DNA of 64,000 nt, from assembly GCA_903832625.1 (NCBI GenBank), contig CAILCI010000081.1, forward strand, positions 16,452-80,451, read 5' to 3'. Shown piece after piece: positions 2,753 to 62,411 of the stretch; position 1 is the first letter of the stretch, and the number at the start of each line of letters is the position of its first letter. The translations under genes and the position numbers were made by a program. The stretch comes from an uncultured Burkholderiales bacterium. GTDB taxonomy: Bacteria > Pseudomonadota > Gammaproteobacteria > Burkholderiales > Burkholderiaceae_C. Under the pieces are notes generated by a model, which worked only from the letters and a program-made list of their open reading frames with translations, ran no database searches and was not told the origin of the DNA.

Positions 2753-3789
2753 GATTTTGTTCCTTCACTGCGTTTCATGCGAGCGAGCAAAAGTTTGGAG
2801 AAACTCAGCACCACAAAGGTGATGAAGAACAAAATCAAACCCAGATAAATCAACGAAGCTTGGTGCAAGCCTTCGCCCGCTTCTGCAAATTCATTGGCCA
2901 AGGCAGACGTGATGCTGTTGGCCGCTTCAAACACACTCAAGGAGTTGAGTTGGTTCATGTTGCCAATCACAAAAGTAACGGCCATGGTCTCGCCCAAAGC
3001 GCGACCCAATCCCAACATAATGCCGCCCACCACACCCGCTTTGGTGTAGGGCAAAACGACTTTAGAAACCACTTCCCAAGTCGTCGAGCCCAAGCCATAA
3101 GCGGACTCTTTGAGCAACGGCGGCGTGACCTCAAACACATCCCTCATCACAGATGCGATAAAGGGGATGATCATGATCGCCAAAATAATGCCTGCTGACA
3201 AAATACCAATGCCCACTGGTGGACCGGACACCATCGCCCCCAAATAAGGCACGCCAGTCAACAGTTTTTGCAAAGGCATTTGCACATAAGTCGACAAAAT
3301 AGGGCCAAACACCAGCAAGCCCCACATGCCGTAAACAATAGAGGGAATGGCCGCCAACAACTCAATGGCAGTGCCCAATGGACGCTTGAGCCAAGCTGGC
3401 GACAACTCCGTCAAAAACACTGCAATGCCAAAACTCACGGGCACTGCAATCAACAAAGCGATGAACGAGGTGGTCAAGGTGCCGTAAATCATCACCAAGC
3501 CACCGTAGTCGTTCTTGACCGGGTCCCACACGGTGCGGGTCAAAAAGCCCAAACCGTATTCATGTATGGCAGGCCAAGCGCCATACACCAAGGACAGCAA
3601 AATTCCAAACAACAACGCAAGCGTCAAACACGCCGCAGCCAATGCTGCCCATCCAAACAGGCGGTCAATGAACGCGCCTAACTTCATATTGACGGGAGCG
3701 GGAGGCTGTGACATGGTTTGGTTCAAACGTGTGAGGTTAGATTCATCCAACAAAGAGCTAGCATGGCTCGACAAACTGTGGCTTGACAT
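2749..3789 (-). CDS. pstC: Phosphate ABC permease PstC (exact start uncertain)
   Basis: [29 protein letters not shown]; 4-bp overlap with pstA. Confidence 0.95.
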
Positions 3790-35515: not shown

Positions 35516-35600
<85 letters not shown>

Positions 35601-35672: not shown

Positions 35673-37052
35673 TTATATCGGCATTGCGACAAGATCGTGT
35701 CCTTGCGCGGCCACGATACGGGCTTTGGTGAACTCACCCACGCGCAAGACCTTGCTGATTTTTTCGGGTGGCAACAAATGCACCACGCCATCAATCTCGG
35801 GAGCGTCCGCATAACTGCGACCCACACCGCCTTTGCGACCATTGCCGGGCGCTGAATCAATCAACACTTGCATGGTTGCGCCCACGCGGCGTTGCAGCTT
35901 GGCGATGGACACCTCTTCGGCCACTGCCATGAAACGCGCTTGGCGTTCTTCACGCACCGCTTGCGGCAACATGCCGGGCAAGTCGTTGGCTTGCGCGCCA
36001 TTGACGGGGCTGTATGCAAAACAACCCGCGCGGTCAATCTCGGCTTCGCGCACAAAGTTGAGCAAGTGTTCAAACTCTGCCTCGGTTTCGCCGGGAAAGC
36101 CTGCAATAAAGGTGCTGCGAATCACCAAGTCAGGACACAGCTCGCGCCAGCGGGCAATGCGTTCCAAGTTTTTCTCACCACTGGCGGGTCGCTTCATGCG
36201 TTTGAGCACATCGGGATGGCTGTGTTGAAACGGCACATCCAAATACGGCAACACACGGCCTTGGTTCATCAAGGGCAAGATGTCATCCACACTGGGATAC
36301 GGATACACATAATGCAAACGCACCCATGCGCCGTAGTGATCGGCCAATTGGCCCAAGGCTTGGGTCAATTCAAAGGTGCGCGTTTTAATGGGCTGGCCAT
36401 CCCAAAAACCTGTGACGTATTTCACATCGACACCATAGGCTGAGGTGTCTTGGCTAATGACCAACAACTCTTTGACGCCGCCTTCAAACAAAGCGCGCGC
36501 TTCTTTGAGCACATCGCCAATTGGGCGGCTGACCAAATCACCGCGCATGGACGGGATGATGCAAAAGGTACAACGGTGGTTACAGCCTTCGCTGATTTTC
36601 AAGTAAGCGTAATGCTTGGGTGTGAGCTTGATGCCCGCTTCGCCAAAAGCGCCCGGCACCAAATCTAAAAATGGGTCATGCGGTTTGGGCAAGTGCTTGT
36701 GCACTGCGTCCATCACCTCTTGCGTGGCGTGTGGACCCGTGACGGCCAGCACGCTGGGGTGCATTTGCTGCACCAAGTTTTCGCCACCCACGCCTGAACG
36801 TGCGCCCAAGCAACCGGTGACGATCACGCGACCGTTTTCAGCCAGCGCTTCGCCAATGGTGTCCAAGCTTTCTTTGACCGCATCGTCAATGAAGCCGCAG
36901 GTGTTGACGATGACGAGGTCGGCGCCATCGAAGGTTTTAGAGGTTTGATAACCCTCGGCGCTCAATTGCGTGAGGATCAGTTCAGAGTCGGTCAAGGCTT
37001 TGGGGCAGCCCAAGCTCACGAAGCCGACTTTGGGAGTTTTGATTTCAGACAT
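35673..37052 (-). CDS. rimO: Ribosomal protein S12 methylthiotransferase
   Basis: [22 protein letters not shown] radical-SAM motif, TRAM domain with APEIDG. Confidence 0.96.
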
Positions 37053-37453
37053 CAGCGTTTGAGCCCCATCAGGTTGATCATGTGTTCGGTGTTGTTTTTG
37101 GCCAGCTTTTGCATGTCAGCAAAAGTTTGTAGATTTTTTTCAAGGTATGAGCCCATCATGCCCTGCATGGTGTGACCATAAAAACGAATCATGTTGGAGA
37201 GCATGCTTTCGTTGAAGAGTGGCGTGCCATTGGACTCTTGTTCCAAAATAATTTGCAACAAAATGCTGCGCGTTAAGTCTTCACCCGTTTTGGCGTCGCG
37301 CACCGCAAACGACTGCGCTTGCATGACCAAGTCCTTGATGTCGCTCAAGGCAACATAGCTAGAAGTGGCCGTGTCGTAAAGCCTGCGGTTGGGGTATTTT
37401 TTGATGATGCGAACACCACTGGGTGGTGTTGCTGAAGAATCTTGGCTGCTCAT
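37052..37453 (-). CDS. phaR: PHA synthesis repressor PhaR (short form)
   Basis: [30 protein letters not shown]; adjacent to rimO. Confidence 0.92.
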
Positions 37454-37477: not shown

Positions 37478-37554
37478 TGGTAGGCGCGATTGGACTCGAA
37501 CCAACGACCCCCACCATGTCAAGGTGGTGCTCTAACCAGCTGAGCTACGCGCCT
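37478..37554 (-). tRNA. tRNA-Val(GAC)
   Basis: AGGCGCG/CGCGCCT acceptor stem, CCACC-TT GAC AT-GGTGG anticodon arm, TTCGAGT, CCA; 77 nt. Confidence 0.97.
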
Positions 37555-47408: not shown

Positions 47409-48434
47409 TCACGCGCCTTCAGGTTTAATTTGCGCCCGCGCAATCACCTGCTTCCAGCGCGTTTGCTCGGTTTTAATAAACGCCTCAAACTCCGCCGCCG
47501 TATTGCCCACCGACAAAGCGCTGTCGTTGGATAACTTGTCCTTCATGATGCTCCCGCGTGCGGCCTTGATGGCTTCGCTCTCCAGACGCGCCAAATTGGC
47601 TTTTGGCCATTTGCTGGGTGCCAGCAGGCCGTACCACTGCGTCATTTCAAAACCTTTGTAGCCTTGCTCGGCGACGGTGGGCACATCAGGCAATTGCGGC
47701 AAGCGCGAGGTCGAACCCGTGGCAATACAGCGCAGCTTGCCGGCTTTGATGAACTGAATCAGTGCAGGCGCACCCACGGCACTGGCCTGCAAGCGCCCGC
47801 CCATGAGGTCGGTGAGCATAGGCCCCGTGCCTTTGTACGGCACATGCACGACAAAGGTTTCGGTCACCATCTTCAAATACTCAAACGCCAAATGCCCTGC
47901 GCTGCCGTTGCCCGCTGTGCCGTAGTTCATTTGGCCGGGATTCTTTTTGGCGTAGGCCACAAATTCGGTCAGGTTTTTCACTGGCAAATCGGGATGCACC
48001 ACATACAGGCTCGGCACTTTCGAGAGCAAGGTGATGGGCACAAAATCGCGCTGCACGTCATAAGGCAGCTTAGGAAAAATATAGGGGTTGACCGCCAAAG
48101 TGCCAATGTGTCCCAAGATAAAGGTGTGCTCGTCGGTGCTGCCCGCCACTTCTTGCATGGCGATGTTGCCCGCCGCACCGGGCTTGTTGTCCACAAACAC
48201 GTTTTGCCCCAAGCCTTTGCTCATTTCAGCAGCCACGGCACGCGCCACAATTTCTGAGCTGCCCCCGGGCGCAAATGGCACCACCAAACGCATGGGCTTG
48301 TTGGGCCAAGCGTTGTCCGCCCATGCTTGGGTGTGCAGACCGAAAGCACCTGCGCCCAAGCTTGTACCCAACAGCGACAAGCATTGGCGACGGTTCAGAT
48401 GGGTTGGGGTTGGGGTTGGGGTTGAATTTGACAT
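47409..48434 (-). CDS. Bug/TctC tripartite tricarboxylate transporter substrate-binding protein with Tat-like signal
   Basis: RRQCL leader, WPNKPMRLVVPFAPGG, DNKPGAAG, YKG, PDVPT; AAGGAG RBS. Confidence 0.92.
   Translation of the reverse strand: MSNSTPTPTPTHLNRRQCLSLLGTSLGAGAFGLHTQAWADNAWPNKPMRLVVPFAPGGSSEIVARAVAAEMSKGLGQNVFVDNKPGAAGNIAMQEVAGSTDEHTFILGHIGTLAVNPYIFPKLPYDVQRDFVPITLLSKVPSLYVVHPDLPVKNLTEFVAYAKKNPGQMNYGTAGNGSAGHLAFEYLKMVTETFVVHVPYKGTGPMLTDLMGGRLQASAVGAPALIQFIKAGKLRCIATGSTSRLPQLPDVPTVAEQGYKGFEMTQWYGLLAPSKWPKANLARLESEAIKAARGSIMKDKLSNDSALSVGNTAAEFEAFIKTEQTRWKQVIARAQIKPEGA
48401..48424 (+). repeat. Hexamer tandem repeat (GGGTTG)x4 encoding TPTPTPT
   Basis: Four perfect copies read directly. 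Confidence 0.9.
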
Positions 48435-48477
48435 GTCGTCTCCTTGAATTTTTTGTTGCTCAAACATCACGCGACTT

Positions 48478-59769: not shown

Positions 59770-59822
59770 CGTCCGATTTTAGAAAGCCACCTCTAAACAT
59801 GCGTTTTGGAAGGTCTAGCCCC

Positions 59823-59850
59823 TTGCAAAGATTCGGGATAACCCTAAACT
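59823..59850 (+). promoter_or_regulatory. Sigma-70-type phasin promoter
   Basis: TTGCAA-N16-TAAACT. Confidence 0.55.
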
Positions 59851-59858
59851 CCATCCCA

Positions 59859-59875
59859 ATGCTGCACCGCAACAT
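59859..59875 (+). promoter_or_regulatory. Putative PhaR operator
   Basis: ATGCTGCACCGCAACAT, an imperfect TGC-rich palindrome just past the predicted TSS of phasin; PhaR is known to bind TGC-rich sites upstream of phaP. Confidence 0.65.
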
Positions 59876-59922
59876 TTTTTGCAAGTTGTTTTCTTTTCAT
59901 TTCACTCTCTAGGAGAAATCTC

Positions 59923-60465
59923 ATGTTGACCGTTGAACAAGTCGTCGCCTCTAACAAAGCCAATCTGGACAACTTTTTTGGTTTGAGCCACCAAGCCTTC
60001 GCTGGCGTGGAAAAATTGGTTGAACTCAACCTCAGCGCCGCTCGCGCTAGCTTGAACGAATCTACTGCCCACGCCAAAGCCGTGTTGGGTGTGAAAGACG
60101 CTCAAGAATTCATCGCTTTGCAAACCAGCTTTGTGCAGCCCTTGGTTGAAAAAACTGTGTCTTACAGCCGTCATGTGTATGACATCACCACTGGCACCAC
60201 TGCCGAACTGAGCAAAGCCGCCGAAGCCAAAGCTGCCGAAGTGCAAGCCGCTGTGTTGGGTTATGTTGACTCTGCTTTGAAAAACGCACCTGCTGGCTCT
60301 GAGTCTGCAGTGGCTTTCTTCAAACAAGCTGTCAGCGCTAGCAACACAGCCGTCGAATCCATCCAAAAAGCGGCCAAACAAGCTGCTGACTTGGCTGAAA
60401 GCAACCTCAACGCTGTGACAGAAACTGCTGTCAAAGCCACAAAAACTACCGCTAAAAAGCGTTAA
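59923..60465 (+). CDS. phaP: Phasin (PHA granule protein)
   Basis: MLTVEQVVA, VEKLVELNL, Ala-rich helices, EKTVSYSRHVYDI; high-expression codon style. Confidence 0.92.
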   Translation: MLTVEQVVASNKANLDNFFGLSHQAFAGVEKLVELNLSAARASLNESTAHAKAVLGVKDAQEFIALQTSFVQPLVEKTVSYSRHVYDITTGTTAELSKAAEAKAAEVQAAVLGYVDSALKNAPAGSESAVAFFKQAVSASNTAVESIQKAAKQAADLAESNLNAVTETAVKATKTTAKKR

Positions 60466-60469
60466 TTTG

Positions 60470-60555
60470 TACCAGTTGTCTCCTCGGGTCCTCTGGACAC
60501 CTCTCTAGGTGCAAGGACTCATTCAAGGGCTCATCGCAAGATGAGCCCTTTTTTT
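60470..60555 (+). ncRNA. Candidate 3'-UTR-derived sRNA with anti-SD seed
   Basis: Seed GTTGTCTCCTC, nested stems and a terminator; see findings. Confidence 0.5.
60525..60555 (+). terminator. Terminator after phaP and the candidate sRNA
   Basis: AAGGGCTCATC-GCAA-GATGAGCCCTT plus a T tract. Confidence 0.85.
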
Positions 60556-60585
60556 GCACTCAAGTTTTGCGCGACAAAACGGATG

Positions 60586-61545
60586 TCAGGGCTGCCCCGC
60601 AGCCAAGGCCGCTTTGAGCTTGGGCAAGGCCTGCAGCATGGCGGCGCGACCGGCTTCAATGGAGCGTTTGCGCGCACTGAACTCGGCGCTGCCCACCCCC
60701 ACCAAATCGGGATGCACCACCAGATCGGCCTCCTTGAGCTCAAAGGCGTTGATGCTCTTGCTCATGATGGTGAAGGTTTGCAACAAAATTTTGAACATGT
60801 CGCTGGTTTTGTTGCCCTCGGGCGTGCTGGAAATATCGACGGCCAGCACATAGTCTGCGCCCATTTGACGGGCATAGCGCACTGGCACGGGAGAGACCAA
60901 ACCACCGTCAACAAATTCACGTGTGCCAATTTTGACCGGCTCAAACACCGACGGCACGGCACTGGATGCACGCACCGCCGTGGCCACATCGCCGCGTTGG
61001 AACATCACACCTTGGCCTGTGTTGAGATCGGTGGCCACAATGCCCAACGGCATTTTGAAATCTTCAATGCGACGCCCAGCCACTTGGTTGTTGACATAAC
61101 GCGCCAGTGCGTCACCGCGCATCATGCCGCGCCCCATCAGCGGAACCGTCCAGTCGGTGAGTGCAGCTTCCTCCATAGTTTCGGCCACGGTTTGGAGTTG
61201 CGCCGCTGTTTTGCCACTGGCGTACAAAGCCGCTACAAAGCTGCCCGCCGAGGTGCCGACCACCAAATCGGGTTTGATGCCCGCTTCTTCCAACACCTGC
61301 AACACGCCGACGTGCGCAAAACCTCGTGCCGCGCCGCCGCCCAAGGCCAGACCGAGTTTGAGCGGCCGTTTGGGCGTTGGTGTCGCGGGCGTCGTGCTTT
61401 GGGGTTGCTCGGTTTGTTGCGAAGTGGTGAGTGGCACCGAAGTACAAGCGGCCAAGCTGGCCAGCAACAGCCAAGCCACGAGACGTTGTGTTGTTTTCAA
61501 CCATGCAGCGTGCTTGGGTGATGCGTTGATAAAAGCCAATGACAT
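60586..61545 (-). CDS. Patatin-like phospholipase with lipoprotein signal (start may be TTG 61500)
   Basis: LALGGGAARG, GTSAG, VDGGL; lipobox LAAC. Confidence 0.9.
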   Translation of the reverse strand: MSLAFINASPKHAAWLKTTQRLVAWLLLASLAACTSVPLTTSQQTEQPQSTTPATPTPKRPLKLGLALGGGAARGFAHVGVLQVLEEAGIKPDLVVGTSAGSFVAALYASGKTAAQLQTVAETMEEAALTDWTVPLMGRGMMRGDALARYVNNQVAGRRIEDFKMPLGIVATDLNTGQGVMFQRGDVATAVRASSAVPSVFEPVKIGTREFVDGGLVSPVPVRYARQMGADYVLAVDISSTPEGNKTSDMFKILLQTFTIMSKSINAFELKEADLVVHPDLVGVGSAEFSARKRSIEAGRAAMLQALPKLKAALAAGQP

Positions 61546-61631: not shown

Positions 61632-61652
61632 TCAAACACATCAGGAGACCTC

Positions 61653-62411
61653 ATGCAAATCAAAGGCAAAGTTTTCATCGTCACGGGCGGCGCATCGGGC
61701 TTGGGCGAAGGCACGGCGCGGGCGCTGGCGGCGTTGGGCGGCACAGTCGTGATTGCAGACATGCAAGAAGACAAAGGCCAAGCCGTCGCACACGAGATTG
61801 GCGGCGCATTTGTCAAATGCGATGTCAGCAACGAAGAAGACGGCCAAGCCGTGGTGGCCAAAGCCGTGTCGCTGGGCAAACTCATGGGTTTGGTCAACTG
61901 CGCGGGCATTGCGCCGGCACAAAAAACCGTTGGTAAAAACGGCGCGCACAGCTTGAGCGTCTACACCAAAACCATCATGGTCAACTTGGTCGGCAGCTTC
62001 AACATGATTCGCTTGGCGGCTGACGCCATGTGCCACAACGAACCCGAATCGACCGGCGAGCGCGGCGTGATGATTTCCACCGCATCGGTCGCGGCCTACG
62101 ACGGCCAAATTGGTCAAGCCGCTTACAGCGCGTCCAAAGGCGGCGTGGTCGGCATGACGTTGCCGATTGCACGCGATTTGGCTCGCAACGGCATTCGCAA
62201 CATGACGATTGCACCCGGCATTTTTGGCACGCCCATGATGTTTGGCATGCCGCAAGAGGTGCAAGACTCGCTGGCCGCCAGCGTGCCCTTCCCTTCGCGC
62301 TTGGGCACACCGCAAGACTACGCCAAGCTGGCCGTGCATATTTTTGAAAACGACATGCTCAACGGCGAAGTGATTCGCTTAGACGGCGCCATTCGTTTGG
62401 CACCAAAATAA
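61653..62411 (+). CDS. 3-hydroxyacyl-CoA dehydrogenase type II (HSD17B10-like SDR)
   Basis: [40 protein letters not shown]. Confidence 0.9.

Follow-up and report, generated by a model that had tools for sequence, protein, structure and literature searches.

Does the 3′ untranslated region (UTR) of a phasin gene merely end its transcript, or does it also encode a regulator? The question is raised by phaP in a 64-kb stretch of contig CAILCI010000081.1 (GenBank assembly GCA_903832625.1), from an uncultured Burkholderiales bacterium; this whole stretch is called the window below, and all positions are given in its numbering. The phaP stop codon is followed by a compact element that an earlier note had read, from the letters of the sequence, as a small RNA (sRNA) linking the storage of polyhydroxybutyrate (PHB) to the translation of transporters. 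We confirm that the phaP 3′ UTR carries a conserved, structured, CU-rich RNA directed against Shine-Dalgarno (SD) sequences.

The layout described earlier is borne out at the positions listed in Table 1: a CU-rich stretch, then stems nested one inside the other, then a strong terminator. The element begins with its seed, 11 nt past the phaP stop codon. Hairpin 1 follows, made of an outer stem (P1) around an inner stem (P2), then a short linker, and a single terminator that serves both phaP and the element. The RNA of the window from position 60476 reads TTGTCTCCTCGGGTCCTCTGGACACCTCTCTAGGTGCAAGGACTCATTCAAGGGCTCATCGCAAGATGAGCCCTTTTTTT. Folding z-scores against shuffled sequences are −4.6 for the 95-nt UTR and −4.7 for the predicted processed form; the latter adopts the structure supported by covariation and leaves the seed free.

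A scan of one genome per species yielded 40 loci encoding related phasins, nearly all from Limnohabitans or Comamonadaceae isolates and metagenome-assembled genomes (MAGs). By covariance model, the element stands directly 3′ of phaP in about 35 of these 40 species-level genomes. R1, the model built from the phaP-linked elements, gives a single match per locus, in every case behind the phasin gene, and no further match in the 64-kb window. In 31 loci the element starts 10-11 nt past the stop codon of phasins that are only 70-90% identical. In the alignment of the element, the columns TGTCTCCT do not vary, and conservation of TTGTCTCCTCGG is 90% or more. Within the phaP coding sequence, third codon positions reach 66% pairwise identity, only 18% of them are invariant, and the longest invariant run counts 8 nt.

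The stems are conserved as stems. RNAalifold finds P1 and the terminator, and in the model-based alignment 98.4% of the cells are paired, with compensatory changes in 15 of the 20 base pairs: 5 of 7 in P1, 2 of 4 in P2 and 8 of 9 in the terminator. No shuffled alignment out of 500 reaches that level of covariation, and no slid register comes near it either. An alignment of phaP 3′ UTRs thus gives a seed that is invariant or nearly so beside covarying stems, and the remark that there is far more structure here than termination needs holds true, both by folding energy and by conservation.

To which family does the element belong? Its seed is identical, in 10 positions out of 10, to the mapped 5′ end of S17S, the experimentally validated ‘Site 1’ of that sRNA. 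S17S is the 67-nt short form of S17 (also CT_433) of Bordetella pertussis; it is bound by Hfq and cut by RNase E from a 190-nt precursor, and its sequence, given in the plasmid table of the S17 paper, is TTGTCTCCTCCACCCTCCTCCTTTGGTGGATTTAGCCCGAGATCGCAAGATCTCGGGCTTTTTTT. The pairing of Site 1 to AAGGAGACACC at the ribosome-binding site (RBS) of BP2158, which is repressed, has been proven by compensatory mutations. Deletion of S17 de-represses 92 genes, 70 of which have complementary RBSs, including 32 transporter genes or operons; among the de-repressed genes are those of Bug/TTT (tripartite tricarboxylate transporter) binding proteins, with AGGAGACAAC and GAGGAGACAC RBSs. RNA interaction by ligation and sequencing (RIL-seq) found 36 chimeric partners on Hfq at the C/T-rich seed of S17.

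The likeness goes beyond the seed. The window RNA and S17S have in common the first 10 nt, a CACC/GGUG hairpin, an AUUYA linker, a terminator with a GCAA tetraloop and the U-tail; the 10 nt preceding the seed are also alike (UGUGCACCGG versus UUUGUAACGA). Folding of each RNA by itself leaves the 5′ seed free and yields hairpin 1, linker and terminator. When the window form, S17S and two phasin-linked relatives are folded side by side, all follow the double-hairpin plan with a U-tailed terminator; the two relatives are L012, a typical member of the clade, and L034, from a Burkholderiaceae MAG. P2 is the counterpart of the CCACC/GGUGG hairpin of S17S, and P1 is specific to the clade.

According to the literature, S17 and the Burkholderia double-hairpin RNAs ncS03, ncS05, ncS27 and ncS62 make up the toxic small RNA family, RF02278. 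At the gathering threshold, Rfam gives no match at the element, and a search on 1 kb returns only a weak match to MmgR and none to RF02278. With 116 nt searched under lax filters, RF02278 matches positions 60477-60556 at 27.2 bits (E 4.4e-4); its 5′ consensus UGUCUCCU is matched in 8 positions of 8, and the AUUC-A linker and the terminator are aligned. L034 bridges the two groups, as it scores 45.0 bits with RF02278 over the full length and 44.9 bits with R1; L037, a phasin-linked locus of Rhodocyclaceae, reaches 30.2 bits with RF02278. Conversely, R1 detects 16 of 16 canonical S17S-like metagenome loci, which had been selected with a 14-mer that includes the seed, at E-values between 7e-9 and 0.09, no higher than 5e-4 in 15 cases, and matches none of six control phasin loci. 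A blastn search of the element against plasmids gave chance matches only. Altogether, the link to toxic small RNAs suspected in the earlier note stands in substance, through seed identity, architecture, sub-threshold Rfam matches, reciprocal detection by R1 and the 45-bit bridge. A novel class of RNA, on the other hand, is not what we find, given that the seed is that of S17S and the plan is the same.

How is the element transcribed? The relatives support co-transcription with phaP, because their metatranscriptome contigs extend beyond the coding sequence into the element or end at its terminator. For L012 (phaP at 3001-3543), contig word depths reach 10^3-10^4 in several freshwater and lake metatranscriptomes, and phaP is among the most abundant transcripts there. 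One L012 contig of depth 529 spans the coding sequence, the stop codon and the seed and enters hairpin 1; another ends at the U-tract of the terminator, and read-through contigs are of low depth only. Four runs of raw reads gave no reads on the element or on the adjacent coding sequence.

An independent sRNA gene lying beside phaP would offer a different account: with a promoter of its own, the ~80-nt RNA would be a primary transcript and transcription of phaP irrelevant to it. Canonical S17 does have a sigma-A promoter, the more distant phasin-linked locus L032 carries a strong promoter-like site, TAGACA-18-TATAAT (11/12), between phaP stop codon and seed, and TAATTT at the stop codon of the window could act as a weak −10. 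However, a consensus scan, which weak or non-sigma-70 promoters could escape, found no sigma-70-like promoter from the phaP 3′ end to the seed in the window, in L012 or in a further phasin-linked locus, L036. TAATTT is not conserved, relatives having TAATTC or TAATTG, and no conserved −35 is visible. Conservation at the synonymous third positions of phaP is lowest in the last 30 codons, the distance from stop codon to seed is fixed across 31 species, and a contig joins coding sequence and element at uniform depth. We consider a separate promoter unlikely.

We rate as still less likely an element that acts in cis, in the manner of the icaR 3′ UTR, by pairing with the phaP RBS or by controlling the stability or translation of the phaP mRNA, and that has no targets in trans. 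The window phaP RBS, UAGGAGAAA, would form 6 bp with the seed, autoregulation would make sense because phaP is extremely abundant, and in Sinorhizobium phasins are indeed repressed by an sRNA, MmgR. Yet in 30 relatives the phaP RBS is UGGAGU, of which only the 4 nt GGAG are complementary, so that we reject self-pairing of the seed with this RBS. The AGGAGA of the window stems from a strain-specific 12-nt insertion, the source of the only extended complementarity between seed and phaP RBS. The seed is moreover identical to that of an sRNA that acts in trans, with pairing proven by compensatory mutation.

MmgR itself (alpha-r8, RF00519), which limits PHB granules in Sinorhizobium through the repression of phasins, might be thought to have a betaproteobacterial homologue here. 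The PHB theme and the weak RF00519 matches, 19.8 bits in the window and 21 bits in L012, point that way. These scores amount to about half of the 41 bits required by the gathering threshold, the alignment is carried by the terminator and a generic hairpin, with the conserved CCUCCC region deleted, the seed lies 5′ of the hairpin and not between hairpins, and the match to S17S is far more specific; we reject this homology as very improbable. Least credible of all is a mere terminator with fortuitous extra structure and no regulatory role: a strong terminator is present and convergent genes need efficient termination, but the 10-12 nt upstream of the stems are unpaired and nonetheless invariant, P1 covaries (P2 less so, in 2 of 4 pairs), and the whole resembles a characterised sRNA family.

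We now propose that a diverged member of the S17S/BdhR/RF02278 lineage forms the phaP 3′ UTR, and that a PhaR-dependent transcript is cut to an ~80-nt Hfq-type sRNA that blocks GGAGAC-type RBSs; on the present evidence we hold this to be fairly probable, with real room for doubt. In other bacteria, repression by PhaR is relieved by PHB granules. The window has a phaR gene whose product likely represses phaP and would therefore repress the sRNA too; for this gating we rely on the presence of the phaR gene and on the conserved operator-like palindrome next to the putative phaP promoter. Transcription of phaP would start at the promoter of the gene itself, which PhaR probably keeps repressed as long as PHB granules have not titrated the repressor away, and would continue past the stop codon to the common terminator. 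A cut of the RNase E type, 10 nt past the stop codon, would then release the ~80-nt RNA. We predict this cleavage between G60475 and U60476, because S17S starts at the homologous UUGUCUCC after ...CACGG. The product, with its free 5′ seed, composite hairpin, AUUCAA linker and U-tailed terminator, would have the layout of an Hfq-dependent sRNA. Its seed would pair with RBSs of the (A)GGAGACA type and block the initiation of translation, as shown for S17S; since the two seeds are identical, a mode of action like that of S17S is the most plausible.

Several observations weigh against this proposal. All of the RF02278 scores, namely 27.2 bits in the window, 30.2 in L037, 45.0 in L034 and 20.4 in L012, miss the gathering threshold of 50 bits, and that of L012, typical as it is of the clade, is no better than the 21 bits it obtains with the unrelated MmgR model. 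Part of the reciprocal R1 score comes from the 10-nt seed, as the test loci were chosen with a 14-mer containing it. Most clade members lack the second CU-rich site of S17S (‘Site 2’), which lies in the hairpin 1 loop: the window has CUCU there, but the loop is neither conserved nor CU-rich, and most relatives have UCAG, ACAG, AUCG or GCAG. Convergence, too, could in principle give rise to an anti-SD seed. As for transcripts, metatranscriptome contigs of this very strain stop at 60446 or 60475, contig depth is lower over the element than over the coding sequence, and the contigs neither show nor exclude a separate ~80-nt RNA or a 5′ end at 60476. Finally, neither candidate target in the window is conserved at its site. 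The Bug site is missing in the nearest homologues, from Limnohabitans Jir72, T6-20 and T6-5, from Ramlibacter and from a cluster labelled Rhodoferax; at the site of the short-chain dehydrogenase (SDR) gene, GGAG is kept, but no more than 7 of 27 syntenic orthologues also have the AC extension. Because L012 scores only 20.4 bits and the test loci were selected by seed, we word the assignment with care: judged by its sequence, the element is a diverged subfamily of the RF02278 lineage and not a threshold-passing member.

The two target sites deserve a closer description, as the earlier note had named both. That GGAGAC-type RBSs can be silenced is experimentally known for the family, Bug/TTT binding-protein genes included. 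At the RBS of the Bug gene in the window, whose product matches Pfam TctC at 1.2e-67, the announced 10-nt match does amount to 10 bp, but one of them is a G-U pair and the site is not conserved. The nearest Bug homologues may be paralogues, because their genomic contexts differ; as a conserved target, the gene receives no support from them. The 7-nt match at the SDR gene is exact, but it too is not kept across the 27 syntenic orthologues; we reject this gene as a conserved target and regard it as a weak candidate. The longest exact complement of the seed in the window is 8 nt, and matches of 7-8 nt also occur at the starts of frr and greA. Since the Bug and SDR sites are not conserved, we draw the targets from the family rather than from the genes of the window; the target class is then likely that of transporter solute-binding proteins and catabolic enzymes.

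The Bug gene begins, on the minus strand at 48395-48431, with a short tandem DNA repeat of ACCCCA in three to four copies, which encodes TPTPTPT ahead of an RR motif resembling that of a signal peptide. The resulting N-terminal extension is missing in the homologues, which have 327-333 amino acids against 341 here.

How does the element compare with known systems? It shares with S17S the first 10 nt at the processed 5′ end (predicted here) and a similar sequence before the cut. S17, in contrast, is intergenic, between BP3151 and coq7, and has its own sigma-A promoter and a 123-nt leader that is non-coding or holds a small open reading frame; S17S is cut from that transcript, whereas here the predicted precursor is the phaP mRNA. 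The element also differs from S17S by the additional outer stem P1 and by the lack of a CU-rich Site 2 loop, and the block of 100% identity between them spans only 10 nt, with no 27-nt block. With ncS03, ncS05, ncS27 and ncS62 of Burkholderia it shares the UGUCUCCU start, the two hairpins of which the second is the terminator, and CU-rich unpaired regions complementary to RBSs. These RNAs are linked to a metabolic slow-down upon nutrient deprivation: overexpression of NcS27, named bdhR1 in Sim et al., attenuates growth, and it was proposed to regulate metabolic shutdown when nutrients are withdrawn. Unlike the phaP element, they occur in 3-5 dispersed copies, none reported to be linked to a phasin, and hairpin 1 is remodelled here.

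Although not a homologue, MmgR is a functional analogue, as a case of PhaR-controlled riboregulation around PHB. In Sinorhizobium meliloti, this anti-SD sRNA depends on Hfq and has ties to PHB metabolism, and its promoter is under the control of the PhaR homologue AniA. It belongs to another class of bacteria, has another order of motifs, is a stand-alone gene and represses phasins; the scores of its model here are at chance level.

Small RNAs released from 3′ UTRs by processing (type II) are well known in Enterobacteria. CpxQ (from cpxP), SroC (from gltI), NarS and UhpU use the terminator of the parental gene and lack a promoter of their own; RNase E releases them, and they bind Hfq. Since these RNAs have no own promoter and are cut from the parental mRNA, they report the activity of the parental promoter. 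The phaP element resembles them in that it shares its terminator with the phaP coding sequence and is contiguous to it, in the window as in 31 relatives. The enterobacterial sRNAs are unrelated to it in sequence and arose within their UTRs, whereas in the case of phaP an upstream gene appears to have captured an sRNA family that existed before and is widely conserved.

The link with phasins is confined to part of the family. At about 17 canonical S17S-like metagenome loci, no phasin gene was detected upstream, a few of these loci having almost no upstream sequence. The element was not found either at six phasin paralogues on plasmids or megaplasmids of Ralstonia, Caballeronia, Polaromonas, Cupriavidus, Paraburkholderia and Burkholderia. 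On these two surveys, we reject a general linkage of the family to phasins; the fusion to phaP is therefore specific to the clade and a few neighbours (L032, L034, L036 and L037).

One of these neighbours may be an intermediate between a stand-alone sRNA gene and the 3′ UTR form. In L032 (3575-3640) the phasin is 54% identical, the element lies 93 nt past its stop codon, and the near-consensus promoter mentioned above and a small 5′ hairpin precede it, which suggests the ancestral state of a neighbouring, self-transcribed sRNA gene. In L037 (3570-3650), from a Rhodocyclaceae MAG, a double-hairpin RNA comes after the phasin gene and is CU-rich in two places, its 5′ end (GCUCCUCCUC) and loop 1 (CCUCAUCCU); the clade model R1 does not detect this element. 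In L058 (10549-12647), a metagenome contig, a canonical S17S-like sRNA is followed at a distance of 1.5 kb by a phasin gene in the same orientation; this loose synteny may hint at an older neighbourhood of sRNA and phasin.

We further suggest, tentatively and as a scenario that falls somewhat short of probable, that in Limnohabitans and its relatives a pan-betaproteobacterial sRNA has been captured by phaP, with L032 as an intermediate of the capture. The phaP transcript would then be a bifunctional, very highly expressed and PhaR-controlled mRNA, and an S17-type sRNA would lower the translation of carbon-uptake genes (Bug/TTT and ATP-binding cassette transporters) and of catabolic genes while PHB is being stored. 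If this is true, stored carbon would feed directly into the control of nutrient uptake at the post-transcriptional level. Neither the kind of RNA nor its mode of action is new. Apparently unreported are the capture by a phasin 3′ UTR, the remodelling of the hairpin and the coupling of PHB to uptake that would follow: in the searchable literature we found no report of a phasin-linked sRNA in Betaproteobacteria, or of any sRNA in Limnohabitans.

S17/BdhR belongs to the small number of sRNAs that are conserved throughout Betaproteobacteria, and all work on it has so far dealt with a stand-alone gene of pathogens. Its fusion to phaP offers a testable link from PHB storage, through the PhaR regulon, to the translation of transporters and catabolic enzymes, in abundant freshwater bacterioplankton that dominate many lakes and in which phaP is among the most abundant transcripts in situ. 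It also provides an example of an existing sRNA gene absorbed into the 3′ UTR of a neighbour, gaining a new regulatory input and keeping the same seed. In practical terms, RF02278 at its threshold misses the phaP-linked subfamily, and the present alignment could extend the model.

Table 1. Coordinates of the phaP element, its surroundings and the candidate target sites in the window.
Feature	Position	Strand	Basis or remark
phaP, phasin of 180 amino acids; parental mRNA	59923-60465	+	Pfam Phasin_2, E 8.5e-30
phaP stop codon TAA	60463-60465	+	read directly
Spacer UUUGUACCAG, 10 nt, stop codon to seed	60466-60475	+	10-11 nt in 31 of 31 core relatives
CU-rich stretch AGTTGTCTCCTC	60474-60485	+	read directly
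Seed UUGUCUCCUC, anti-SD	60476-60485	+	single-stranded in the predicted fold; (nearly) invariant in relatives
Hairpin 1, P1 around P2	60486-60520	+	sequence and covariation
Outer stem P1, GGGTCCT with AGGACTC	60486-60492 with 60514-60520	+	7 bp, one G-U
Inner stem P2, CACCU with AGGUG, loop CUCU	60498-60502 with 60507-60511	+	read directly
Linker AUUCAA	60521-60526	+	(C)UUCAA conserved in relatives; matches AUUc-a of RF02278 and AUUUA of S17S
Rho-independent terminator common to phaP and sRNA, GGGCUCAUC-GCAA-GAUGAGCCC and U7	60527-60555	+	terminator scan
Terminator as DNA, GGGCTCATC-GCAA-GATGAGCCC, then T7	60527-60548, then 60549-60555	+	direct reading and terminator scan
Putative phaP promoter, −35 TTGCAA, 16-nt spacer, −10 TAAACT	59823-59828 and 59845-59850	+	hexamers nearly invariant in 31 upstream regions; metatranscriptome contigs start at 59875-59888
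PhaR-operator-like palindrome ATGCTGCACCGCAACAT, TGC-N3-GCA core	59859-59875	+	conserved in 31 of 31 relatives; a short way downstream of the putative −10
phaR, PHB accumulation regulator	37055-37453	−	Pfam PHB_acc_N 4.9e-30, PHB_acc 2.3e-17
Patatin-like lipase gene, convergent to phaP	60586-61545	−	part of the conserved gene order
Candidate site AGGAGACGAC, RBS of the TctC/Bug substrate-binding protein gene (coding sequence 47412-48434)	48435-48444	−	directly before ATG
Candidate site AGGAGAC, RBS of the SDR gene (61653-62411)	61643-61649	+	exact 7-nt complement

The surroundings of the element are conserved as well, in the order deacetylase gene (reverse), phaP with the element, patatin gene (reverse) and SDR gene. 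Between the terminator and the patatin stop codon lies another, small hairpin, GTTTTG-CGCGA-CAAAAC (60565-60581). Read on the minus strand, from the patatin side, neither the terminator hairpin nor this one is followed by a T-run.

The phaR gene stands in tandem with a gene resembling radical-SAM (S-adenosylmethionine)/TRAM methylthiotransferases (35676-37052), and the pair is flanked by transfer RNA genes at 35516-35597 (+) and 37481-37554 (−). In the phaP 5′ UTR, the region 59898-59922 holds the strain-specific insertion of 12 nt, CATTTCACTCTC, and the RBS TAGGAGAAA, where all relatives have TGGAGT. Further upstream, in the interval that separates the phaP promoter from the divergent deacetylase gene, an inverted repeat TTTAGA-N8-TCTAAA (59778-59797) is almost invariant in 31 relatives; it could be the binding site of a regulator or part of the deacetylase 5′ UTR.

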